Assembly (NCBI GenBank): GCA_965223325.1
Contig: CBDCWI010000002.1
Location: forward strand, 1,664,001 to 1,728,000
DNA: 64,000 nt
DNA from: Candidatus Multivoradales bacterium
GTDB taxonomy: Bacteria; Acidobacteriota; Thermoanaerobaculia; Multivoradales; Multivoraceae
Direction of reading: 5' to 3'
Shown here: positions 966-57,571 of the stretch, piece after piece
Layout: each line of letters starts with the position of its first letter
Position numbering within the stretch: position 1 is the stretch's first letter
Notes under the pieces: model-generated
The model's input: the letters and a program-made list of their open reading frames with translations, nothing else
Database searches by the model: none
What the model was told of the DNA's origin: nothing
Translations under genes and position numbers: made by a program

Positions 966-1331
966 CGGACTCGATCCTTTCTGAGCGTTTGAAGATTCAG
1001 ATTCCGGCAGCGGCGCCGAACCCGAAACAGACGTCAATCTAGTGAAGGTGTGCCCGAAACGAAGGCGGAACACACAGACGTCCGGTAAGACGTCAGCGGG
1101 CCAATTCTTGCCGATTGTTGCTGAAACAGCTGGATGATCGTACCGGTGTCTGGCCTTCGCCGTATGTGCCTGAGAACACAGGATTCTTGGGAATATCTTG
1201 GACTGTACCTGAAAGGTTCTTGAAGACTTATTGAATAATTCTTGAATATATGGCTAATCTTCGATATCTTTGTTCCGTCGCGATCGGCTTGGGAGAGCAC
1301 GAGCGACGCCAACAACGACCGCAGGGTAGCC

Positions 1332-2606
1332 ATGAACATTTCAAGTCTGATCCCGTCTGCTTCCGCCCTGATGCTGCTGTGCAGCCTCGCTGGCCCCACT
1401 CTCGCCGTAAGCCCTTCTGAGTTTCCGCGCCCGGACCTGGTGTTCGCGCCCGGTACGCCGCAGCACTACGTCGACAACATGAACGAACGCTACGGCACGC
1501 TCGACAGCATGACCTCCCGCGCCCACGCCGGCTCGCGCTGGATCGCGACGGCGACCGATGGCGGTGGCCTTCAGCCCGGCGACCCGATCACCTTGACCTG
1601 GGGCTACCTGGCCGAGGGAACGATGATCGAGGGCGACGCCGGCGAGGCGGCCTCGCCCAACAACTTCCACGCCTGGATGAACTCGCTCTACCCGGGCGGC
1701 TTCGCCGAGTGGCACCCGCTCTTCGTCTCGATGTTCGAGCGCTGGGGGGCGGTGGCCGGGATCACCTACGTCTACGAACCGAACGACGACGGTGCCGAGT
1801 TTCCCCGCGAGCGCGGACTCCTCGGCGTACGGCCCGACGTTCGCATCGGCGCACACCGCATCGACGGCAACTACGGAATGCTCGCCTACAACTCCTACCC
1901 CACCCGCGGCGACATGATCCTCGACTCTTACGACGCCTACTTCGACAGTAAGGCACTCAACTCGCTGCGGCTGCGTAACACCATCGCCCACGAGCATGGT
2001 CATGGCATCGGCCTGCGTCACGTCTGCCCCGCCAACGGCACCAAGCTGATGGAGCCCTGGCTGTCGACCAACTTCGACGGTCCACAGCACGACGACATCC
2101 TCGGTGCGCAGCAGCACTATGGCGATCCCAACGGCGCCAACAACTGGTCCTCCACGGCAACAGCGCGCTCTACGACCTCAACCACCTCCTACGCCAGCAT
2201 CGACTCAGGAACCGAGGAGGACTGGTTCTCGGTCCAGCTACGTGCTGACGAACCGATCGATGTCCGCGTGATCGCCGAAGGTGCCGCCTACAGCATCGGT
2301 TCCGAAGACGACGCGTGCCAGATCAGAAACGACGACTCGCGACTCCATCGCGACCTGGGAGTCGAGTTCCTCGACCGCAACGGGCAGACGGTGCTCGCCT
2401 CTTCCGACACCTTCGGTCCCGGCGGCACCGAGCGCTTTCAGGTCCGCGCCCCGAACACAGGGCGCTACTTCGTACGCGTACACGGCGCGTCCGGCCTCGG
2501 AGTTCAGCCCTATCGACTGCAACTCACCGGCGAGCGCACCGCGAACCCGCTCATCAGCTTCAACGACTTCGAAGGGGGTAAGGCGAACGTGTTCCATCGG
2601 CCCTGA
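1332..2606 (+). CDS. Secreted matrixin-like (M10) zinc metallopeptidase with C-terminal PPC-like domain
   Basis: Signal peptide MNISSLIPSASALMLLCSLAGPTLA; metzincin motif HEHGHGIGLRH; Met-turn KLMEP; EEDWFSV PPC-like segment. Confidence 0.85.
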   Translation: MNISSLIPSASALMLLCSLAGPTLAVSPSEFPRPDLVFAPGTPQHYVDNMNERYGTLDSMTSRAHAGSRWIATATDGGGLQPGDPITLTWGYLAEGTMIEGDAGEAASPNNFHAWMNSLYPGGFAEWHPLFVSMFERWGAVAGITYVYEPNDDGAEFPRERGLLGVRPDVRIGAHRIDGNYGMLAYNSYPTRGDMILDSYDAYFDSKALNSLRLRNTIAHEHGHGIGLRHVCPANGTKLMEPWLSTNFDGPQHDDILGAQQHYGDPNGANNWSSTATARSTTSTTSYASIDSGTEEDWFSVQLRADEPIDVRVIAEGAAYSIGSEDDACQIRNDDSRLHRDLGVEFLDRNGQTVLASSDTFGPGGTERFQVRAPNTGRYFVRVHGASGLGVQPYRLQLTGERTANPLISFNDFEGGKANVFHRP

Positions 2607-47256: not shown

Positions 47257-48084
47257 ATGCGGGCGCGATTCAGGAGACCACGAAAGGCTCCCGGCAGCTT
47301 GCTGCCCGTCGCGACCGTCCTTGCTCTCGTGATCCTCGCGTGCCAACCGTCCAGCCCGCCGGCTGCTGGCGAAGCGGCCGCTCCCGCCCGAGAATCTGCA
47401 GGCGACTCGACGGCCGACTGGCAGACGCCGCTTCTGGTGGACGAGGACTTCGACCCGGCGACCCCTCTGCGGGCCGGGTTTCTGGTCGTCGATGGGGTCT
47501 TCAACTCGGAGTTGATGGCGCCCTACGACATTTTCCACCACACGCCACCGCACACAGCACCGGCCGCAGGCATCGAGGTCTTCGTCGTCTCACCTGACGG
47601 CAAGCCAATCACGACCTACGAGGGCCTCGAGATCGCTGCGCACCACTCGTTCGCTAGCGCACCTCCGATCGACATTCTCGTCGTGGCGAGTGCCGAACAC
47701 TCGATGGATAGCGATCTCGAGAACCAGGAGATGCTCGACTGGGTCGCCAGGGTCAGCCGCGAAGCACGCTACGTGCTCTCGCTCTGCGACGGGGCGTTCG
47801 TACTCGCTGCGGCGGGTGTGCTCGACGGCCGTGCCGTGACGACTTTTCCCGGCGACCTCGACCGCTTTGAAGAGAGGTTTCCGCATCTCGACGTCAGGCG
47901 GGGCGTCTCCTTCGTTCACGACCGCAACACCATCACGTCGTCCGGCGGGTCGCTCTCCTACGATCCCGCGATCTATCTCGTCGCTCATCTCTACGGAGAC
48001 GAGGCCGCCCAGCGCGTCGGCACGGGTCTCTTGATCGACTGGCCACCCGGCGACCTCCAGGCGACCCTCTTGCCCGAGGGATGA
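47257..48084 (+). CDS. DJ-1/PfpI family protein, probable lipoprotein
   Basis: Lipobox ILAC; NSELMAPYD; SLCDGAFVLAAAGVLDG. Confidence 0.8.
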   Translation: MRARFRRPRKAPGSLLPVATVLALVILACQPSSPPAAGEAAAPARESAGDSTADWQTPLLVDEDFDPATPLRAGFLVVDGVFNSELMAPYDIFHHTPPHTAPAAGIEVFVVSPDGKPITTYEGLEIAAHHSFASAPPIDILVVASAEHSMDSDLENQEMLDWVARVSREARYVLSLCDGAFVLAAAGVLDGRAVTTFPGDLDRFEERFPHLDVRRGVSFVHDRNTITSSGGSLSYDPAIYLVAHLYGDEAAQRVGTGLLIDWPPGDLQATLLPEG

Positions 48085-49307
48085 CATCAGAGGAGATCAG
48101 TGAGGTGTCGCCGGACGCCGCCGTGCCGTCCCACCGCGCGCTCGTCTTGAACGCCGGCAGGACCAGAATCGAGATCCAGCCCCAACCTCCTGTCGGGCCA
48201 GGAGAGCTTCTGCTCGAGGTCCTGGCCTGTGGTTTGTGCGGAACGGATCTCTACAAGCTCGACCGCGCTGCGCGTGCGGCGGCCGAAGGCAGAGACGGAC
48301 CGCTGCCTGACGGTACCGTTCTGGGCCACGAAGTCGTCGGCCGCGTGATCGCCGTTGGCGAACCCCACGACAATCGCTTCGCGCTCGGCGACCGCTGCGT
48401 CGTTCCACACCACCTCGCCTGCGGCGCCTGTCGACTCTGTCGCCTGGGCAGCGAAACGCGCTGCGAGACGTTTCTCGAGCAACGCCTTGAACCGGGCGGC
48501 TTCGCCGACGTTCTCCGCGTTGACCGAGAGGCTACGGCGCGTAGCGCGCGCCGGGTACCACCGTCGATGAGCAACGAGGACGCTTGCCTGCTAGAACCCG
48601 CGGCATGCGTGTTGAGGGCCATCGAGCGCTCGGGGCTCTCGAGCACCGACGACGGCACGGTTGCGATTCTCGGCGCCGGCAGCATGGGTCTCTTGCACAT
48701 GCTCTCTCTCGAAGCCTTCAGACCGCGAGCGCGCGTCGTCATGTTTGAACCACAGGCCGTACGTCGCGACTACGCACTCAGCTTCGGGGCTGCCGCTTGC
48801 TACTGCCCGCACGAGCTTCGAGACGGCGGCTCGGCGCGCGCGCTCGCAGCACAATGCGACGTCGTCTTCGATACCGTCGGGGGGATAGAGGCGCTCCGAA
48901 CGGCCCAGCCGCTCCTTCGCCCCGGCGGAACGGTGGTGCTCTTCGCACACGCTGCGCACCCGCCGGAGGATCACGATCCACCCGCCGATCACGGTCCGCC
49001 CATCGACACCCTGCTCAACCGCTTCTTCCACGCCGAACAACGGATCGTCACCAGCTACTCGGGCGCCCTCGGCGAGCAGGAGGCTTGCTGGCAGGCGATG
49101 TGCCGCGCCAGTGACAGCGGGGCTATGACGCAAGCAGGGCCAACACTCAGCCCAGGGCGGCTGGTCACCCATCGCGTCAGCCTCGACGATTTCGCGCGCG
49201 CTCTGGAATTGGCGCGGGAGCCCGAGACGCTCAAAGTCCTGATCGTCCCCGGTGGGGGATCGCCCGTCGATGAGACCCCTGGCGCGTCGGGAGCGCGCGA
49301 AGCATGA
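48081..49307 (+). CDS. Zinc-dependent alcohol dehydrogenase (MDR family)
   Basis: CGLCGTD, GHE, CGACRLCRLGSETRC, GAGSMG. Confidence 0.88.
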   Translation: MTSEEISEVSPDAAVPSHRALVLNAGRTRIEIQPQPPVGPGELLLEVLACGLCGTDLYKLDRAARAAAEGRDGPLPDGTVLGHEVVGRVIAVGEPHDNRFALGDRCVVPHHLACGACRLCRLGSETRCETFLEQRLEPGGFADVLRVDREATARSARRVPPSMSNEDACLLEPAACVLRAIERSGLSSTDDGTVAILGAGSMGLLHMLSLEAFRPRARVVMFEPQAVRRDYALSFGAAACYCPHELRDGGSARALAAQCDVVFDTVGGIEALRTAQPLLRPGGTVVLFAHAAHPPEDHDPPADHGPPIDTLLNRFFHAEQRIVTSYSGALGEQEACWQAMCRASDSGAMTQAGPTLSPGRLVTHRVSLDDFARALELAREPETLKVLIVPGGGSPVDETPGASGAREA

Positions 49308-50410
49308 CTCTCCCCCGTGAGTTTCGGCAGGTGCACCTGCTCGGGCCTGAGCACATCGAGACCAAAACCTGCCCGCTTCCCGCTCCCCGAAGCGGCGAAG
49401 TGATCGTCAGGGTCGAGGCGACGCTGACCTGCGGCACAGATCTCAAGACCTACCGACGGGGCGGTCACCCGACCATGATCGACACCCCCGGTCCCTTCGG
49501 TCATGAAGGTGCCGGCCAGATAAGAGCGACAGCAGACGAAGACTGGCGCGTCGGCGAGCGAGTCGTGGTCTCGAACTCGGCTTCTTGTGGCACCTGCGAG
49601 CGTTGTGCGGACGGGCGCGAGAACCTGTGTAGCCAGCTGCAGTACCTGAACGGTACCTTCGCCGAGTACCTCATCGTGCCCAGTGCATTCGTCGAGCGCG
49701 GGCTACACCGTGTCCCCGAGGGCCTCGACCTGGCGGTGGCGGCGCTGGCCGAGCCCTACGCGTGTGTCTTGCACTGCCTCGACTTGGCACTCGGCGGTCG
49801 GGTTCGCGAGCCAGAGGGGAGCGAAGCGAGGACCAGCGACCCGATCGACGCCCTGGTGCTCGGCCTCGGGTCGATGGGCCTCATGTTGACCGCCGAGCTG
49901 GTGCGCCGCGGTCACCAGGTCGTGTGTGCCGACCCAAACCCCGAGAGACTGAAGCTGGCAGCGAGGGCGGGCGCCACTCGCGTCCTCGAGGTCAGCCGTG
50001 AGGGCGGCGAAGCCAAGCGACTGCGGCCCCTCGCCCAGCGCGGGTTGGAGGGGTTCGATCTGGCGATCGAAGCGACCGGCTCGCCGACCGGCTGGAGCGA
50101 TGCCATTCAGGCGGCGCGTCCGGGCGGAGAGGCGGTCTTCTTCAGTGGCTGTGCGCCGGGAACCCGCCTCGGCCTCGACACCGGCCGGCTGCATTACGGC
50201 GAGCTCACGTTGCGCGGCGTCTACCATCACCGCCCCGAGACCTTCCGGCGAGCCCTCGACTACCTCGCCCAGGGCCACTTGCCCACCGACTTGCTCCTTT
50301 CTGTCCGCCTGCCACTCGACCAGGCCAGCGAGGCTTTTGAGCTCATGAAGGCTCGCCGGGCAATCAAGGTCGTCCTCGAACCATGGGGACCCAACCCGCG
50401 AGGACAGTGA
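49304..50410 (+). CDS. Zinc-dependent alcohol dehydrogenase (MDR family)
   Basis: TCGTD, GHE, CGTCERCADGRENLC, GLGSMG; ATGA overlap with the previous gene. Confidence 0.88.
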   Translation: MTLPREFRQVHLLGPEHIETKTCPLPAPRSGEVIVRVEATLTCGTDLKTYRRGGHPTMIDTPGPFGHEGAGQIRATADEDWRVGERVVVSNSASCGTCERCADGRENLCSQLQYLNGTFAEYLIVPSAFVERGLHRVPEGLDLAVAALAEPYACVLHCLDLALGGRVREPEGSEARTSDPIDALVLGLGSMGLMLTAELVRRGHQVVCADPNPERLKLAARAGATRVLEVSREGGEAKRLRPLAQRGLEGFDLAIEATGSPTGWSDAIQAARPGGEAVFFSGCAPGTRLGLDTGRLHYGELTLRGVYHHRPETFRRALDYLAQGHLPTDLLLSVRLPLDQASEAFELMKARRAIKVVLEPWGPNPRGQ

Positions 50411-50591
50411 CGCACCGCCTTGCGCGATGCGGGCCGAGCGCCCGTGCGAAGCATCGATCAAATAGAATATGAAGGTACCGCCGCCCGGGAGAACCCTCCG
50501 GGGTTCGCTGCCCGCTGCACCGACCTTCCTTGATTGACGCGGCACCGCCCTCCCGGTGGCGGAACCGCCAGTACCCCAGAGGCTCAACCAC

Positions 50592-51086
50592 ATGCGACTG
50601 CTGATCATCGTTCCCGTCGCCCTGTCGACCCTGCTCGCATCCCTGCCGCCGGCGTACGGACAGGAGCCCGCGAAGGCACCCGCCGCCGGCAACGAGGCAA
50701 CCACTCCGGTTGCACGCCAACCCAACGCGTCGACGCCCCCTCCACCACCTGAGCGCGACCCCGAGGGAAAGTGGTTCTCCGTCGTGCCAGTGATGCTGTG
50801 GTGGGCTGGGCCGAAGAAGCCCCGTTTCAAGGTGTGCACCGACAACGACCTGGGCGAAGGCGTCGGCAAAGGATGCGAGGTTCTCGGAGCTCCCGAGAAC
50901 GTGCGCAGCATTCAGATGCAGTGCGAATGGAACTGTAGTGAGCTCGAGCCCCGCAAACGCGTCGAAGTGCACGGCAAAGTCGTCGGCCAGTTCCTCGTGG
51001 CAACCGAAGCGCGCGAGCCACAACCCCCACCGGCCGAGTCGACCCCAGCCAAAGAAGAGGAAAAGAAGGACCCACCAAAGAGCTGA
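50592..51086 (+). CDS. Hypothetical exported protein with four Cys
   Basis: Signal peptide MRLLIIVPVALSTLLASLPPAYG; Pro-rich flanks around a small Cys-containing core. Confidence 0.6.
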   Translation: MRLLIIVPVALSTLLASLPPAYGQEPAKAPAAGNEATTPVARQPNASTPPPPPERDPEGKWFSVVPVMLWWAGPKKPRFKVCTDNDLGEGVGKGCEVLGAPENVRSIQMQCEWNCSELEPRKRVEVHGKVVGQFLVATEAREPQPPPAESTPAKEEEKKDPPKS

Positions 51087-51333
51087 GACCGCAACGACCT
51101 GGCAGGAAGGTTCGTCGAGGAATCACGGCGCGACCCGTCCCACCACGTCCCTCCTCACCCGGGTCCTGCCCGCCAGGTAGGTGGTAGCCAGCTCCCATCA
51201 CCCACCGCAGATCCTGAAAGCCAAATCAGCGACAACGAAGCCAAGAATCCGCGGCGCGTGCAAGACCAACGAAGGCCGATGACGCAAGAGCAGGGCCAAG
51301 ACCTTCGAAGACAAAAACGCAACGGACCGCTTG

Positions 51334-53243
51334 GATACGCCGGGATAAACCGGCATGGAGAAAGGAATGAGAGAGTCCCACCCTCGAAGGGGTAGCGACC
51401 CAGAGGGTCCCCGAGTCATGCGCCGGCTCCCGCGAGGGTGCGGTGAAGCGTTGACAGGGGCACACACAGGCCGGGTATTGAGCCGCGAAATAAGAATTTG
51501 GGAGTGCCGACGCTGTCAAGCGAAGCGGAAGGCGAGACTCCGTAGCGCGCTATCGCGAGCTCTGCGGCGACTCCCCGCGGTCGTAGACCCTGTGCATGTG
51601 TGGAATCTCCATGCGCGAGAACCGGGAGATCCGCGATCTGGCCAGTTGGGTATCTGGTCCGCATCGGGAAGGCTAGAGGCCGTAAGCCGATGACGCACGG
51701 ATGGCGGAAGTCAGACAGGCCCGTAGTACCTGCGAAGTCGTCGAACAACGGTGGGAGACCAGCGGCGGAGGCGGTGGAGGGAAGGGGCCTGGCCAAGGGG
51801 AACACGGGCAAGCAAAACGCACCCCGGACACAGAGCCGGATGGAGAGTGCGAGCAATGCGCTGGGCCGTGTACGAGAAGCCGCCCGCAGGGGCAAGGAAG
51901 TGAAGTTCACAGCGCTTCTTCACCACATCACGGTCGAGCGACTCCGGAGCGCATTTGACGTGTTGCACCGAGACGCAGCGGCAGGAGTGGACGGAGTGTC
52001 ATGGAGCGAGTACGCAGAATCTTTGCTGAGCAATCTCGAGGACCTGCACTCTCGTGTCCACCGTGGGAGCTACCGGGCGAGTGCGACTCGTCGCGTCTAC
52101 ATCGAGAAATCGGATGGGCGGTTCCGACCGCTTGGCATCGCCACGTTGGAGGACAAGATCCTTCAGCGCGCCGTCGTCTCGGTGTTGGATGCGATCTACG
52201 AGGAAGACTTTCTCGGGTACTCATACGGATTCAGGCGAGGCCGCAGCCAGCACGATGCTTTGGATGCGCTATTCGTTGGAATCACAAAGCGGAAGGTGAA
52301 CTGGGTGCTCGACGCAGACATTCGTGGGTTCTTCGATGCCCTGGACCACGAGTGGCTGGTGAAGTTTCTCGAGCACCGTATCGGAGACCGTAGGATCCTT
52401 CGCCTCATCCAGAAATGGCTGAGGTCCGGAGTGATGGAAGACGGTAAGTGGCACGCGAGCACGCGGGGGACTCCTCAGGGGGCGACGATTTCGCCTCTCC
52501 TCGGGAACGTGTACCTGCACTACGTGCTCGATCTCTGGGTCCAGCAGTGGAGGAAACGCAACGCGCTTGGGGACATGATCTTCGTGCGCTACGCGGATGA
52601 CTTCATCGTTGGATTTGAGAGGCAGGAGGAGGCAGAACGATTCCTCGAGGAACTGAACCTGCGACTCCGTGACTTCTCGTTGGAGATCCAACCCGAGAAG
52701 ACGCGCCTGCTGGAGTTTGGCCGCTTTGCGGCCTACAACCGACGCGCGCGAGGTCTCGGGCGGCCGGAGACCTTCGAGTTTCTAGGCTTTACGCACTGCT
52801 GTGCGCAGTCTAGTCGAGGGAGGTTCTTGCTGAAGCGCATCACGAGCCGCCACCGAATCCGCAGGACACTGAAGGCTGTCGGTACGGCCCTTCTGGGACA
52901 CCGACACTCGCCGCTACCAGAGCAAGGTCTCTGGCTGGGATCCGTGGTGCGAGGCTTCAATGCCTACTACGGCGTACCCGGCAACTCAGCGGCGTTGAAC
53001 GCCTTTCGACAGGAGGTCATTCGGCACTGGATGCGCGCTCTGCGCCGACGCAGTGACAAAGACCGCACGTCCTGGAAACGGATGTGGGCCCTGGTGGCCC
53101 ACTACCTACCCAAAGCCCGAGTCCAACATCCCTGGCCTGATGAGCGACTTGTCGTCAATACCTGAGGCAGGAGCCCAGTGCATTAGCAGTGCACGCTGGG
53201 ATCTGTGCGGGGGGCGCCGGGCAACCGGCGCTCCTACCGCGAT
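51334..53243 (+). mobile_element. Complete group II intron (IIB-like, probably bacterial class E, En-minus)
   Basis: Boundaries defined by comparison with the uninterrupted repeat (CGCTTG|CGCCGC); EBS1 CAAGCG (51517-51522) complementary to IBS1 CGCTTG (51328-51333); domain V at about 53171-53203 with AGC triad; domain VI with bulged A53236; 3' AT end. Confidence 0.93.
51690..53165 (+). CDS. ltrA: Group II intron reverse transcriptase/maturase
   Basis: RPLGIATLEDKILQ, SYGFRRGRSQHDA, VLDADIRGFFD, GTPQGATISPLLGNVYLH, RYADD, FEFLGF, domain X; no HNH endonuclease. Confidence 0.95.
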   Translation: MTHGWRKSDRPVVPAKSSNNGGRPAAEAVEGRGLAKGNTGKQNAPRTQSRMESASNALGRVREAARRGKEVKFTALLHHITVERLRSAFDVLHRDAAAGVDGVSWSEYAESLLSNLEDLHSRVHRGSYRASATRRVYIEKSDGRFRPLGIATLEDKILQRAVVSVLDAIYEEDFLGYSYGFRRGRSQHDALDALFVGITKRKVNWVLDADIRGFFDALDHEWLVKFLEHRIGDRRILRLIQKWLRSGVMEDGKWHASTRGTPQGATISPLLGNVYLHYVLDLWVQQWRKRNALGDMIFVRYADDFIVGFERQEEAERFLEELNLRLRDFSLEIQPEKTRLLEFGRFAAYNRRARGLGRPETFEFLGFTHCCAQSSRGRFLLKRITSRHRIRRTLKAVGTALLGHRHSPLPEQGLWLGSVVRGFNAYYGVPGNSAALNAFRQEVIRHWMRALRRRSDKDRTSWKRMWALVAHYLPKARVQHPWPDERLVVNT

Positions 53244-53764
53244 CGCCGCAAGAGTCGTTCTCACCCGGATCCTGCCCGCCAGGTAGGTGGTAGCCAACTC
53301 CCATCACCCACCCCAGATCCTGAAAGCCAAATCAGCGACAACGAAGCCAAGAATCCGCGGCGTGCGCAAGACCACCGAAGGCCGATGACGCAAGAGCAGC
53401 GCCAAGACCTTCGAAGACAAGAAAAAACGCAACGGACCGCTTGCGCCGCAAGAGTCGCTCTCACCCGGATCCTGCCCGCCAGGTAGGTGGTAGCCAACTC
53501 CCATCACCCACCGCAGATCCTGAAAGCCAAATCAGCGACAACGAAGCCAAGAATCCGCGGCGTGCGCAAGACCACCGAAGGCCGATGACGCAAGAGCAGG
53601 GCCAAGACCTTCGAAGACAAAAAACGCAACGGACCGCTTGCGCCGCAAGAGTGATTCTAGCGTGACCTGTGGTAACGACTCCCCGCTATCGCCAGAAAGC
53701 AACCCCAACCGCACCGCTCACCAACCCAGGCACACCCCACCGGCGGCCGCTACCACAGGTCACG

Positions 53765-56050
53765 CTAGAGCTCGAGGTCGCCGTGCCCGAAGACGATGTC
53801 GAGTCGATTGCCGTTGATGATGAACTTCTGAAGTCGCATCGAAGAGTCCGACAGATCGGCAACGATGTGGATCTCGTTGATGCCCTTGCCGACATGGAAC
53901 CCGGTCCGCAAGCGGCCGACGTGGGTCGAACCGACTTCGACCATGCCAGCACCGTAGGGAGCCTCGACGCCGAGAATGCGAATCAACTCGCGGGGGGGAT
54001 CGGCGAGTCGTAGATGGCGGGTGTTGGTTGGCGTGATCCCACCATCAGCCCAGATCTGCACGATCGTGTTGTCACCTTCGGTATCGATGGTGATGTTCTC
54101 GACCCTTGAAAGGACCGGCATCGTGCGCGTCGTTCGATCTTCGATGGCCACCTCACCACCGTCCTGCATCAAGCTGAGCAAGGTTGGCACTCCGTCGTCG
54201 TCGAGACCGACCGTGTCGACAAGTGCTGTGTCGGCAAGCTCCCGGCCATCGTCACCTGCAATGTTCGAGACGTACCTTTTGCCGAGGAAGATCACGGCCA
54301 CACCGACTGCGATCAGCAGCAGGGTGACGATGAAGAACAAAGAGCGGCTCCGCGGACTGTTCTCCTGCGGAAGAGGTTCGAAGCCGCTTGGCACGAACTC
54401 TTCAACGGGTGTCGGTTCAATGCGCGGCAACATGCCGGTGCTGAGGACATCCTCGGTTTCTGGCACCGGTGCCTGCTGTGTCACCTCGGGGCCGAAGTCA
54501 CCGGGCGACCGAGCCTGGTGCTGGCCGGTGTCGCGCGCTAGCTTCTCGCGCAGGAGCAGCTCTTCGGTGCGCATGCGATCGGTTTCGAGCTGTGCGGTGG
54601 CAACCCGCAACGGAGACGTCGACATGTGAGGACTACGCGCTGGCTGCGGCACCGGGTCGGGAATCGGAACCGGCGGTTCACTCGGGCGTGAAGGCAACGG
54701 TTCGTCGAGCTCGTCAGGGATGTCGAAGGCCGGCATCTCCTCGCCCACTCCAGGGTCGTCGGGTCGCCTTGCGTGGGGATCGAAGTACGAGGCGACCGAG
54801 TCGGTTTCGCCGTAGCCCGGGCCAGGATCGATCGGGGCGGAGTCGAGCAGCCCGTCGTCCATCAGTCCGGGTTCATTGAGCGCTGCGTCCAAGGCGCTCG
54901 AGTCTTCGAATTCAGAATCATCGAGCAACGACTCGTGGACGGAAAAGTCGTCTTGCAAAGCAGGTTCGGGCGACGCCTCCGGCACCGGCGCGGCTACCGG
55001 CGCTGCGGGCGCTGCTGGCGGTGGAACCGCTGCTGCCGTTTCGGTGTCGATCGCTCCGGTGGCTTCGTCGCTGAGCTCCCAGAGCTCTGCGCCGAGGGCC
55101 ATGCTGAAGTCGTCGGCAGACGTTGCCTCTTCTTCCGTCGGTGGAGCAGCAGGCAGGCCGGCCGCCGCCGCTGGCTGGGCAGGCGGGGCCTCTGTTTGGC
55201 TTTCGCCCGACAGAGCCGAGAGAGCCTGATCCGCCGTCGGACTACGCGACGACGGACTGCTTGCTGGCACATCGAGGCCGGGCGCAAAGTCGCCCTGCGC
55301 TTCGATAGCGCTCAGGCCCTCCGGCGGTGCCTCTGCCGCAACATCGAAACCATCGTTGATCCCTGTCGCCACGACATCCTCGACCACCTCTTGCTGGCTC
55401 GGCGCGGGCTTAACGGACGACATGCCAGTCTCGCCCAGAAAGGCGGCGATCTCTTCGCGCGACATCGGTGGCGGGTCGACGCGAGGTTCGAGCTCGAGGG
55501 CCTCCGCCGCCGCAGCCTCGGCCGCGGTCGGCTCAGCGGGAGGTGACTCAGCCACCGGCTCGCGTGGGGCGGCCGGCTTCGGCTGCTCCACGGCGACTGG
55601 TTTCGCCACGCTCATGGCACCAGTACGAGGCGCGGTTTCGCTGCCCTCGAGTTTGAAGGGCTTACCCCCCTCCTTGATGAAGTTGCTGACGATCTTGTTG
55701 ATCAACAACTCGCTGTCTTTATCGACCCAGTCGAAGCGCACGCCCATTCCGGCTGGCAGCGACGGCGAGAGATTCTCGTTGCGCGACCACACGACCGTTC
55801 CCTGGCCGCGGATCAGGGTGTACTCGTCTTCGAGGCGAAACATCACCGCCAGGGCCGTCCCCTTGGGGAGTGGCTTGTCAGTCGCCAGGAATACTCCGCC
55901 GCGCGAGATGTTCGAACGGAACCGATCGAGGAACCCCACGAAGTCGTCGACGACGACCTCGAGGTACTCGGGAACGGGAACGCGCAGCTGATCGGGATCC
56001 AGCTCGCGGCGGTTACCGGCACCGACGTAGATTTTGACTTCGGGCTCCAA
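53765..56050 (-). CDS. PilZ-like (TIGR02266-type) domain protein with long acidic/Pro-rich linker, TM helix and AMIN-like C-terminal domain
   Basis: SNISRGGVFL, GTVVWSR, GMGVRF; TM LFFIVTLLLIAVGVAVIFL; LADPPRELIRI..VGRLRTGFH..IVADL. Confidence 0.75.
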   Translation of the reverse strand: MEPEVKIYVGAGNRRELDPDQLRVPVPEYLEVVVDDFVGFLDRFRSNISRGGVFLATDKPLPKGTALAVMFRLEDEYTLIRGQGTVVWSRNENLSPSLPAGMGVRFDWVDKDSELLINKIVSNFIKEGGKPFKLEGSETAPRTGAMSVAKPVAVEQPKPAAPREPVAESPPAEPTAAEAAAAEALELEPRVDPPPMSREEIAAFLGETGMSSVKPAPSQQEVVEDVVATGINDGFDVAAEAPPEGLSAIEAQGDFAPGLDVPASSPSSRSPTADQALSALSGESQTEAPPAQPAAAAGLPAAPPTEEEATSADDFSMALGAELWELSDEATGAIDTETAAAVPPPAAPAAPVAAPVPEASPEPALQDDFSVHESLLDDSEFEDSSALDAALNEPGLMDDGLLDSAPIDPGPGYGETDSVASYFDPHARRPDDPGVGEEMPAFDIPDELDEPLPSRPSEPPVPIPDPVPQPARSPHMSTSPLRVATAQLETDRMRTEELLLREKLARDTGQHQARSPGDFGPEVTQQAPVPETEDVLSTGMLPRIEPTPVEEFVPSGFEPLPQENSPRSRSLFFIVTLLLIAVGVAVIFLGKRYVSNIAGDDGRELADTALVDTVGLDDDGVPTLLSLMQDGGEVAIEDRTTRTMPVLSRVENITIDTEGDNTIVQIWADGGITPTNTRHLRLADPPRELIRILGVEAPYGAGMVEVGSTHVGRLRTGFHVGKGINEIHIVADLSDSSMRLQKFIINGNRLDIVFGHGDLEL

Positions 56051-56341
56051 GGAGTTCAGATCTCTTGGCTAGGAGCTGAGAGGCCCCGCGGACGCGGTGC
56101 TTTGGCTTCTCGACTGGAGAATGGGAAAGGAAAGTGCTGGAAGGCGCGGCACGCCACATACGGCCAGACACCGCAACCGAGCCGGACCACGCCCGACTCT
56201 CGTTAATCGACAAATTCTAGCATTTCTCAAGAAGGAGATCCAGCCAGATCGGTCGTCTATACTCCGCTCCCCTTGATCTCCTCAGAAGTTCAGGCCCACT
56301 GGCCCCCGGGGACAGAGCGGCCAACGGTCCTCGAGTGAACC

Positions 56342-57571
56342 ATGACTGACCCCAGACCGCCAAAGCCGCCGTCCACCGAGAGCGAAGTCGACAGCCTCCA
56401 GGACCTGCAAGCGGCTCGCGAGGCCATCGAAACGGTGGATCGGCAGCTCATGGAGCTCTTTCGCGAGCGGATGCAGATCGTCGAAAGCGTCGCGTCGGCC
56501 AAGGTCGAGGCCGCCTACCCGTTTCGGGACCAGTTCCGTGAGGAACAGGTGCTCAGGCGCGTCCGCCAAACCGCCACCGAAATGGACCTCGACGCCCACC
56601 AGATGGAAGCCCTTTTCCGCTCCATCATGGAAATGGCCATTCACCACCAGCAGGCCTTCATCAAGCGCCTGCCGACCACCCCTCTGCGGGTCGCCTACCA
56701 GGGCGTCGAAGGTTCGTTCAGCCACCTCACCGCGCAGCGCCACTACCGCGGCCTCGGCAAGCCGATCCTTCTCACCGGCTTCGAGACCTTCCGCGAAGCT
56801 GCTGAAAGCGTGCGCACCGGCACCGACGACATGGCTCTTCTGCCGATCGAGAACAGCACCGCCGGCAGCATCAACGAGACCTACGACCTGCTCGCCGAGG
56901 GTGGACTGACCATCAATGCCGAAGCCATCAGCCGAGTCTCCCACTGCCTACTCGGCCTCGCGGGCGCCAAGGTCGAGAGCCTGCGCGCGGTGATTTCCCA
57001 CCCCCAGGCACTCCTGCAGTGCGAGGACTTCTTGCGCAGCCATCCACACATTCGCTCGCGCGCCGAGTTCGACACCGCCGGCGCCGCCCGCAAGGTCAAG
57101 GAGCAACGCGACCCGACCCTGGCAGCCATCGCCAGCGAGTCGGCAGCCCGGGTCTTCGCCCTCGAAGTCATCGAGCGCGATATCCAGACCCAGGCCAGCA
57201 ACTTCACCCGCTTCGTCGAAGTCGCCCGCGAGCCTGCCACCTGCCCCCCCGAGGTGCCGTGCAAGACCTCGCTCCTCCTCGCCACCGGCCATCGTCCCGG
57301 AGACCTCGCCGACGTCCTGCGCCATTTCGCCAGCCGCACCATCAACCTGACCAAGCTCGAATCACGCCCCGTACCCGACCGCCCCTTTCAGTACCAGTTC
57401 TACCTCGACCTCGAAGGCCACGCCAACTCCGCCGCGCTGGTCGATGCCCTCGACGCGATCAAAGAGCACACCCGCGAGCTGCGCATCCTCGGCACCTACC
57501 CAAGTGCGGCCGACGCGATCTCACCAACCGGCGACGCCGAAGCCCCCAGGAAGGCGCCTGAAGCGGAATGA
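56342..57571 (+). CDS. pheA: Bifunctional chorismate mutase/prephenate dehydratase
   Basis: AroQ-like N-terminus; YQGVEGSFS, PIENSTAG, SHPQAL, NFTRF, LTKLESRP. Confidence 0.93.
   Translation: MTDPRPPKPPSTESEVDSLQDLQAAREAIETVDRQLMELFRERMQIVESVASAKVEAAYPFRDQFREEQVLRRVRQTATEMDLDAHQMEALFRSIMEMAIHHQQAFIKRLPTTPLRVAYQGVEGSFSHLTAQRHYRGLGKPILLTGFETFREAAESVRTGTDDMALLPIENSTAGSINETYDLLAEGGLTINAEAISRVSHCLLGLAGAKVESLRAVISHPQALLQCEDFLRSHPHIRSRAEFDTAGAARKVKEQRDPTLAAIASESAARVFALEVIERDIQTQASNFTRFVEVAREPATCPPEVPCKTSLLLATGHRPGDLADVLRHFASRTINLTKLESRPVPDRPFQYQFYLDLEGHANSAALVDALDAIKEHTRELRILGTYPSAADAISPTGDAEAPRKAPEAE

Follow-up and report, generated by a model that had tools for sequence, protein, structure and literature searches.

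A group II intron and its structured, tandemly repeated target in a Multivoradales genome

The intron and its array in the window

The stretch of DNA analysed here (the window, 64,000 nucleotides; positions below count from its first letter) comes from a Candidatus Multivoradales bacterium (GCA_965223325.1, contig CBDCWI010000002.1, positions 1,664,001 to 1,728,000). It holds a group II intron of 1910 nt on the plus strand (51334-53243), which interrupts the first of three tandem units of a repeat on the same strand. The 5' part of unit 1 (51154-51333; three-unit alignment, 94% identity to unit 2) ends with the intron-binding site 1 (IBS1) CGCTTG at 51328-51333, and the rest of the unit follows the intron at 53244-53256, with the 3' exon CGCCGCAAGAGTC... 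at its start. Unit 2 (53257-53456) and the core of unit 3 (53457-53655) were delimited by sequence and unit alignment, and a motif search located an empty site in each, at 53443/53444 and 53640/53641. For 53244-53652 Tandem Repeats Finder, which also supported unit 2, reported a period of 200 with 2.1 copies and matches of 97%. The initial annotation, made from the letters of the window, had described an intron in an array of ~200-bp repeats with two empty sites, and both the array and the sites were borne out.

Since the site is unbroken in units 2 and 3, where it reads CGCTTG|CGCCGCAAG, the boundaries of the intron have no freedom. The 5' exon (...ggaccgcttg, with GGACCGCTTG as its last letters) stops at 51333 and the 3' exon (cgccgcaag; CGCCGCAAG) runs from 53244, so that the split of unit 1 proposed earlier, CGCTTG|CGCC, is fixed at 51333/51334 and 53243/53244. 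Between these borders the intron begins with GAUACG and ends with ...CCGCGAU.

The core of ribozyme domain 1 (51372-51590, +) matched the Rfam model RF02005 (group-II-D1D4-6) over its full length (1-225) with 180.6 bits (E 1.3e-53), compared to a gathering score of 49, which identifies ribozyme domains 1-4. The stem-loop at 51511-51527, cgctgtcaagcgaagcg, has a CGCT/AGCG stem and presents CAAGCG in its loop (51517-51522, +). In the Rfam structure line this loop, GUCAAGCGA, closed by CGCU/AGCG, is that of the exon-binding site 1 (EBS1), and CAAGCG is the exact reverse complement of the final six bases of the exon, a complementarity that the annotation had already pointed out. Domains 5 and 6 were placed by folding at 53167-53240 (+): the fold of 53163-53243 (-46.9 kcal/mol, z -4.16) consists of two hairpins, the first domain 5-like and the second, domain 6, with a UA bulge; the bulged A, at 53236, is the eighth base from the 3' end, which is AU. 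No separate Rfam match to domains 5-6 was obtained at E up to 1 in 48000-57000.

In domain 4 the intron encodes a reverse transcriptase (RT)/maturase of 441 aa (51840-53165, +; TIGR04416, 342.9 bits with a cut-off of 300), which is 58-59% identical to plasmid ltrA genes; this frame and the ribozyme domains are intact. The Pfam search of this open reading frame (ORF) returned RVT_1 only (134.3 bits); neither HNH nor GIIM was matched at E up to 0.01, and no endonuclease domain was detected. Solved class IIC RTs (5hhl, 7uim and 6ar1) scored 136-145 bits, LtrA 134 and the T.el4h RT 128, each of these matches covering the RT domain only.

The feature had been closed at 53652, which is too short. 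The element continues to 53769 through a long terminal hairpin (53656-53769, +; sequence and fold) with 19-bp arms, the 5' arm (TCTAGCGTGACCTGTGGTA) at 53656-53674 and the 3' arm at 53751-53769. This full hairpin is found only in the last unit of the array; internal units have a shortened one with an 11-nt loop. A second helix, P1, is formed in unit 3 by GCGGCGTGCGC and GCTTGCGCCGC, and was also recovered by a single-sequence fold. The CTA at 53765-53767, within the 3' arm, is the TAG stop of a convergent ORF at 53765-56050 (-).

Additional hairpins were seen on the opposite strand. A consensus scan marked terminator-like hairpins with a T-run on the minus strand at 53426-53447, in unit 2, and at 53623-53644, overlapping the empty site of unit 3; each unit of the window array reads, on this strand, the hairpin GGCGCAAGCGGTCCGTTGCGTT followed by TTTT. 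They could act as terminators of the convergent gene. Their T-run is specific to the subfamily of the window array, as the corresponding plus-strand A-run before the site was not seen in the other loci inspected.

Intron copies and their sites across the genome

A blastn search of the whole genome (6.69 Mb, two contigs, C1 and C2) with the intron returned 14 full-length matches (1910 nt), 12 of them at 100% and two at 99.948% identity, as well as one 239-nt fragment of the intron's 3' end. Thirteen of the full copies sit at one position of one repeat family, in the common context ...CGGACCGCTTG|CGCCGCAA.. with small variations, and the 3' exon of the fragment is the same repeat element. The fourteenth copy lies, in sense, within a GNAT-like ORF, at ...GAGCGCTTG|CAGTTGG; it is the only one in an unrelated target, an observation that had been named in advance as speaking against the repeat as a harbour. 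All 14 sites have CGCTTG|C, that is, the 6-bp EBS1-IBS1 pairing and a C at +1, and in 11 of them the longer GGACCGCTTG|C is kept.

To count the targets, the genome was searched for an 18-nt site motif with up to three mismatches, which occurred 145 times. Removal of chance hits left 114 empty units at 44 loci (16 singles and 28 arrays), the arrays having 2-6 units with periods of ~160-390 bp. Together with the 13 filled ones this makes 127 units at ~49 loci, of which 10% (13/127) are occupied; 99 of the 114 empty units carry a perfect CGCTTG|C. The count of filled and empty sites that the initial annotation had asked for thus upholds its suggestion of a multicopy harbour in repetitive non-coding DNA, and replaces its two empty sites in one array by a target family spread over the genome.

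The 14 copies have 14 different flanks. Between -90 and +45, the flanks of the 13 copies in the element share a mean identity of 64% (range 52-78%, 78 pairs), compared to at least 99.9% for the introns themselves. Flank identity being so far below intron identity, the introns must be much younger than the divergence of their host units, and therefore spread by their own mobility and not by co-amplification.

A second intron was found in none of the eight intron-holding arrays, which together keep 17 further empty units; the tandem introns that had been foreseen are not there. In five of the eight arrays the intron occupies the 5'-most unit, a weak trend. With the origin placed near C2:3.50 Mb by GC skew, eight introns are co-directional with replication and six head-on, and the corresponding numbers for the arrays are 19 and 25. 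At C1:820071-824031 two arrays of 4-5 units each face one another head to head on opposite strands, and one of the two has an intron in its first unit.

The repeat element, its fold and its neighbours

The units are near-identical within an array and ~70-75% identical between arrays. In the sense of the intron, the element (200-310 nt) starts with a conserved block A, GTTCCATCGAAGCCnnGAATCCGCGGCGCGCGAC, passes through a variable, G+C-rich middle (TGCAGGGCGrsCGCC...GGCCCGC) to the site block, aCGGACCGCTTG|CGCCGCAAnnGTGAy, and, in most terminal units, ends with the same terminal-hairpin architecture, TAG-N7-9-CGTGGTAA, a loop of ~75-81 nt, and AAACCACG-N7-9-CTA. In one subfamily (C2:4105450, 3962448, 4065405, 4367075, 512892 and others) a module CCCCC..GGGGG..GGGGGaGAAGAC follows directly after CGCC or the intron site; with its CCCCC-loop-GGGGG it resembles a pseudoknot or a Shine-Dalgarno-like sequence.

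RNAalifold analysis of 29 canonical terminal units from 29 loci yielded two helices, P1 and the 17-19-bp hairpin. P1 is a long-range helix between block A and the site block (CCGC[G/C]GCGCG with CGC-UU-GCGC[C/G]GC), its partner block lying ~80 nt upstream of the insertion-site block, and the point of intron insertion is within its 3' strand. Compensatory changes were seen at three P1 pairs (GC:22/CG:6, CG:26/GC:3 and GC:27/UA:1), and two-sided changes at 12 of the 17 hairpin pairs. Over the 27 pairs, 97.7% of the cells are paired compared to 82.2% in shuffled alignments; the covariation score was 0.380, against 0.087 when shuffled, was reached by none of 500 shuffles, and fell to 0.04-0.08 in slid controls. 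The small palindrome that the initial annotation had placed at the site, CTTGCG-C-CGCAAG, is indeed present in most units, but it is P1 and not this palindrome that covaries. A manual count of one-sided changes on the intron-sense strand gave ten G-U and one clear A-C, the other "unpaired" cells coming from two rows shifted by one column; this asymmetry indicates that the folded strand is that of the intron sense, as RNA or single-stranded DNA.

The element abuts the ends of genes. For 33 of the 44 terminal units, the opposite strand has an open frame of 80 codons or more that ends at the hairpin's 3' arm; the stop codon lies in the final 7 nt of the arm in 29 of the 33, and at the arm end or within 2 nt of it in the other four. 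The stops are TAG (28), TGA (3) and TAA (2), and each of the three is matched by the distal hairpin arm. Several of the remaining 11 terminal units are misses of the arm-finding script, including the window unit, with its stop at 53765-53767. Judged by eye, many of the frames look like familiar proteins: IMP dehydrogenase, asparaginyl-tRNA synthetase, argininosuccinate synthase, TonB-dependent receptors, Omp85-like proteins and others. The end of guaB reads GAG AGC TAG|CGCGCC here and GAG CGA TAG|GAAAGC in the same-genus genome, and that of asnS reads TAT CCG TGA|TCTGAGG and TAT CCC TGA|AGCACT, respectively; at asnS the distal arm, ...CCTCAGATCA, matches the TGA. The tail of argG is nine residues shorter here, and the element may therefore supply the stop codon in some cases.

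Hairpins at stop codons were also noticed in two relatives. In relative G005, at ~1200-1500 (-), past the 3' end of guaB, there are tandem repeats that contain the last codons of the gene (..ACTACTGGGTCGAACGATGA..) and a GCGCCGCAGGCGC hairpin, a different stop-codon-associated tandem repeat. At asnS in relative G001, which has no element at this place, the TGA (1440-1500, -) still precedes a short hairpin, CACTCG...CGAGTG, with TCA at the end of its far side. It may be common in this lineage for hairpins to take in the stop codon.

When up to two mismatches are allowed, this genome has 86 occurrences of the site motif and each of 40 relatives, the same genus included, has 0-4, which is the level of a reversed-pattern control. 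A covariance model of the element scored all 68 of the 68 candidates of this genome at 141-234 bits, and gave weak matches (24-38 bits) in six of 30 relatives, with up to 68 candidates scored per genome. Four of the weak matches were aligned and represent a shorter homologous element (~140-190 nt) in another genus, in which P1 is a simple hairpin and the loop of the other hairpin is shorter. The same-genus genome yielded no copy of the element. Among species representatives the exact core pattern occurred in 43 stretches, all in one Thermoanaerobaculia-labelled metagenome-assembled genome; metagenome contigs contained one match to the core pattern of the element and none to a 30-nt exon-intron junction. 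The intron query retrieved degraded or distant relatives only (seven candidates scored per genome), among them, in same-genus G001, a degraded intron of 77-85% identity in pieces at an unrelated site.

Targeting, mechanism and alternatives

Taken together, the results indicate that this is very probably an endonuclease-less, RT-encoding intron, active now or very recently, that retrohomes into a fixed position of a structured repeat. What directs it there is only in part the pairing with its exon. The genome contains 1797 empty CGCTTGC sites, of which 99 (5.5%) are within the element; from EBS1 and the +1 base alone ~6% of the insertions would be expected there, and 13 of 14 were observed, an excess of ~200-fold over expectation. 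EBS1 pairing alone therefore cannot explain the targeting.

Homologous introns are found on plasmids of proteobacteria (Agrobacterium vitis, Cupriavidus, Rhizobium, Mesorhizobium and Pseudomonas), with ~70% identity in the ribozyme. In those of Cupriavidus, R. jaguaris and M. huakuii the loop homologous to EBS1 pairs with the intron's own 5' exon. Their EBS2 is an internal loop between GAGCCGCGAAA and CGGGUGCCGACG, complementary to the exon at about -7 to -12, and pairing with IBS2 was found in three of the four canonical homologues (Cupriavidus, GAAGUC/GACUUC; A. vitis, CCUAA/UUAGG; M. huakuii, UUGAC/GUCAG), R. jaguaris showing no clear pairing. In the present intron the homologous loop is AAAUAAGAAUUU, which does not pair with the target CGGACC at -7 to -12; the canonical EBS2 pairing is thus absent. 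Other EBS2 candidates, from a comparison of intron nucleotides 1-470 with -15 to -1 and +1 to +11, were rejected as helix strands or as sequences kept despite other targets, and the lone GGUCCG of the intron was rejected as well, being conserved in homologues with other targets. The earlier description of the homing as "sequence-programmed" therefore holds for EBS1 and the C at +1, which are present at all 14 sites, and fails for the preference for the element and for the unmatched EBS2-homologous loop. The extra specificity presumably lies with the protein, or with the way in which the element folds or becomes accessible.

Of the five homologues aligned, four start with GTGCG, the exception being the copy of Rhizobium sp. 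007. This plasmid intron, at ~55-75, is seemingly without the canonical GTGCG (..GTGGGAACGCCGG..), and introns of this lineage may depart from that start repeatedly.

The scenario that best accommodates these data is as follows. The intron very probably retrohomes into ...CGGACCGCUUG^CGCC... of a lineage-specific element of 200-310 nt, which lies directly behind the stop codon of an opposite-strand neighbour gene and folds on the intron-sense strand. Transcription of the element in sense, possibly reading through from an ORF that lies upstream in the same orientation, as one does in the window, would allow the intron to splice and to form ribonucleoproteins (RNPs). The 6-bp EBS1-IBS1 pairing and the +1 C would constitute the base-paired part of recognition, and the remaining ~200-fold preference would be due to the intron protein reading conserved flanking bases, or to the folded element being recognised or accessible. 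Arrays would be in steady state with a single intron, since two direct repeats of 1.9 kb placed ~200 bp apart would be expected to recombine; the absence of double-intron arrays fits such a loss together with the low saturation of other multicopy homing sites, as given in PMC3522654.

Several points weigh against this account. The GAUACG 5' end, in the window copy and in all 14 copies, which align from base 1, departs from GUGYG, the expected 5' end of bacterial group II introns. The EBS2-homologous loop is without a partner in the target, and the conserved bases at -7 to -11 may be conserved only as part of the element. Targeting is not absolute, since one copy lies outside the element. The lack of a bias in replication orientation gives no support to a lagging-strand-primed pathway. 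Activity of the intron we infer from the identity of its copies, and sense transcription, splicing and folding of the strand as RNA are predictions from the sequence. Finally, the arrays are known from one two-contig assembly and from short contigs that possibly derive from the source sample.

As to the element itself, the most likely of the possibilities considered, if by no means secure, is a selfish intergenic repeat, similar to repetitive extragenic palindromic (REP) sequences or miniature inverted-repeat transposable elements (MITEs), which inserts next to stop codons; its patchy distribution, its subfamilies and its near-perfect arms favour this view. A genuine family of small non-coding RNA genes, in which the intron would be a classical RNA-gene intron whose splicing restores the product, is a less likely explanation that the strand asymmetry and the covariation keep in play: there are two covarying helices, the G-U excess is on the intron-sense strand, and the intron is always in that sense. 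Against it, no Rfam family was matched by the repeat, the intron being the sole match at E up to 1 in 48000-57000 and two weak chance matches to microRNAs the only ones at E up to 5 in eight arrays. No sigma-70-like promoter was found by consensus scan in 50900-53900. At guaB and asnS the element begins right after a stop codon shared with the same-genus genome, in which the element was not found, another genus having a shorter form; and near-perfect arms are a property of young mobile repeats. Were the element transcribed, dozens of housekeeping genes could be affected at their 3' ends.

Structure-guided homing of the class C type, in which the RNP would recognise a folded single strand of the element (P1 or the upstream G+C-rich hairpin) beside a short IBS1, and which would have arisen on its own in a lineage with EBS2-using relatives, appears doubtful to us. 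It would account for an EBS2 pairing that is present in the homologues and missing here, for the position of the site in a covarying helix and for the strong extra specificity for the element. On the other hand, a site within a helix strand should hinder EBS1 pairing, no consistent hairpin is found just upstream of the site across loci, there is no replication-strand bias, and, by the scores over its RT domain, the RT seems no closer to class IIC RTs than to those of IIA or IIB.

A more speculative proposal, which we regard as rather unlikely, combines the two levels: the repeat would be a new self-inserting structured element (RNA or single-stranded DNA) whose outer arm pairs with the stop codon on which it has landed, and the intron would read the folded element, having given up EBS2. 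If true, this would constitute a hierarchy of three levels, from gene end to stop-codon-seeking repeat to structure-seeking retroelement.

The remaining explanations fare worse. That base pairing by EBS1 (plus EBS3) suffices to aim the intron, with the element favoured only for its many copies of the motif, is improbable: the 6-bp pairing and the +1 C are perfect at all 14 sites, but the element holds 99 of the 1797 empty CGCTTGC sites and received 13 of the 14 insertions, and the homologous loop offers no EBS2 complement. Passive spread, by which an intron that entered once was multiplied with its host so that the common site reflects common descent, is strongly disfavoured. The element is indeed multicopy and tandemly amplified, but the host units are far more divergent than the introns, each of the eight arrays has one intron-bearing unit among near-identical ones, and the copy in the GNAT-like ORF, an unrelated gene, has the same IBS1.

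Duplication of the array or of the intron copies by the assembler is the least credible of all, even though such repeats are hard to assemble and short-read contigs break at all repeat borders: in two runs with the same organism label the contig depth over the intron was ~7-12 times that of the flanks (66.9 compared to 5.6-9.6, and 103 compared to 9.6-15.9), a 102-nt contig spans both the empty site 53443/4 and the border of units 2 and 3, the 14 copies each have flanks of their own, and loose ends from two low-depth runs with other organism labels show flanks that belong to other copies in this genome. The runs with 0.2-0.47 of the words turned out to hold such flanks of other copies, and so say nothing in favour of horizontal spread. 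Two joints, 51258>53624 and 51258>53635, were rejected as deletions; their sides are 21-26 nt long and were taken as cross-matches to other family members. A low-depth contig of run X5 (window 53341-53551) has unit-3-like letters (G at 53400, three nucleotides fewer at 53419), after which a further unit begins, which suggests a different order or number of units in that population.

Homing into multicopy non-coding or dispensable DNA is an established behaviour of group II introns; new here are the target and the mode of recognition. RmInt1 of Sinorhizobium meliloti homes into the multicopy insertion sequence ISRm2011-2, and class C introns are found in attC sites as well. PMC3522654 describes E. 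coli and Shigella group II introns that home into insertion sequence (IS) elements, an occupation of 2-36% in several genomes with more than ten sites, and the insertion of class C introns after intrinsic terminators. With RmInt1 and the E. coli introns the present one shares the lack of an endonuclease, a repeated and dispensable homing site, many copies and many empty sites; it differs in that their target is a transposase gene, whereas here it is a non-coding, structured tandem repeat, EBS2 is apparently absent and the 5' end is GAUACG.

The analogy with class C introns that the initial annotation had drawn is valid for behaviour, and not for membership. Common to both are a folded, repeated non-coding target outside genes, recognition by short IBS1 and IBS3 plus something else, and an EBS2 apparently unused. 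In class C, however, IBS1 has 3-4 nt and the site follows a stem-loop, whereas here IBS1 has 6 bp and the site is inside a helix strand; the terminator-like hairpins are on the strand opposite the intron; the ribozyme matches RF02005, with homologues that have EBS2; and, by its scores, the RT seems not closer to the solved IIC RTs than to others. As for the plasmid homologues, the likeness extends to the identities of ribozyme and RT, the same RT length and an EBS1 loop in the same place, but these introns occupy unrelated single sites, mostly start with GTGCG, and in three of four canonical cases have EBS2-IBS2 pairing, none of which is found here.

Like REP sequences and bacterial interspersed mosaic elements (BIMEs), SPRITE-like and MITE-type repeats, the element is extragenic and palindromic, is found at the 3' ends of genes, is clustered and is used by other mobile elements. 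In contrast to them it has 200-310 nt, two long-range helices and near-identical tandem units, and its outer arm holds the stop of the neighbour. In Pseudomonas putida KT2440 two of nine group II intron copies are REP-associated, according to PMC1525189, an association of 22% compared to 93% here.

New in this system are an undescribed target, which covaries, is amplified in tandem and adjoins stop codons, an EBS2 pairing that is apparently lost despite high specificity, and a non-canonical 5' end. It constitutes a natural case in which base-paired recognition (six base pairs plus one) is far too short for the specificity observed; the 99 empty and 13 filled, varied targets form a data set on what, besides the EBS, aims an endonuclease-less intron, which should be useful for targetron design. 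The intron also appears to splice, or at least to spread, with a GAUACG 5' end.

REP and BIME sequences with a REP-associated tyrosine transposase (RAYT) are short, imperfectly palindromic, present outside genes in hundreds of copies and found on both sides of a Y1 gene, a description that the present element does not fit; a Y1/RAYT link was considered and is not supported, one of 28 matches to PF01797 (Y1 transposase) in the genome lying within 1 kb of an array. These 28 matches, in open frames of ~175-410 aa, are a large paralogue expansion. Many of the frames cluster close to the ends of contigs, at C2:4455510-4486968 and C1:2126128-2143849, and several of them are identical copies.

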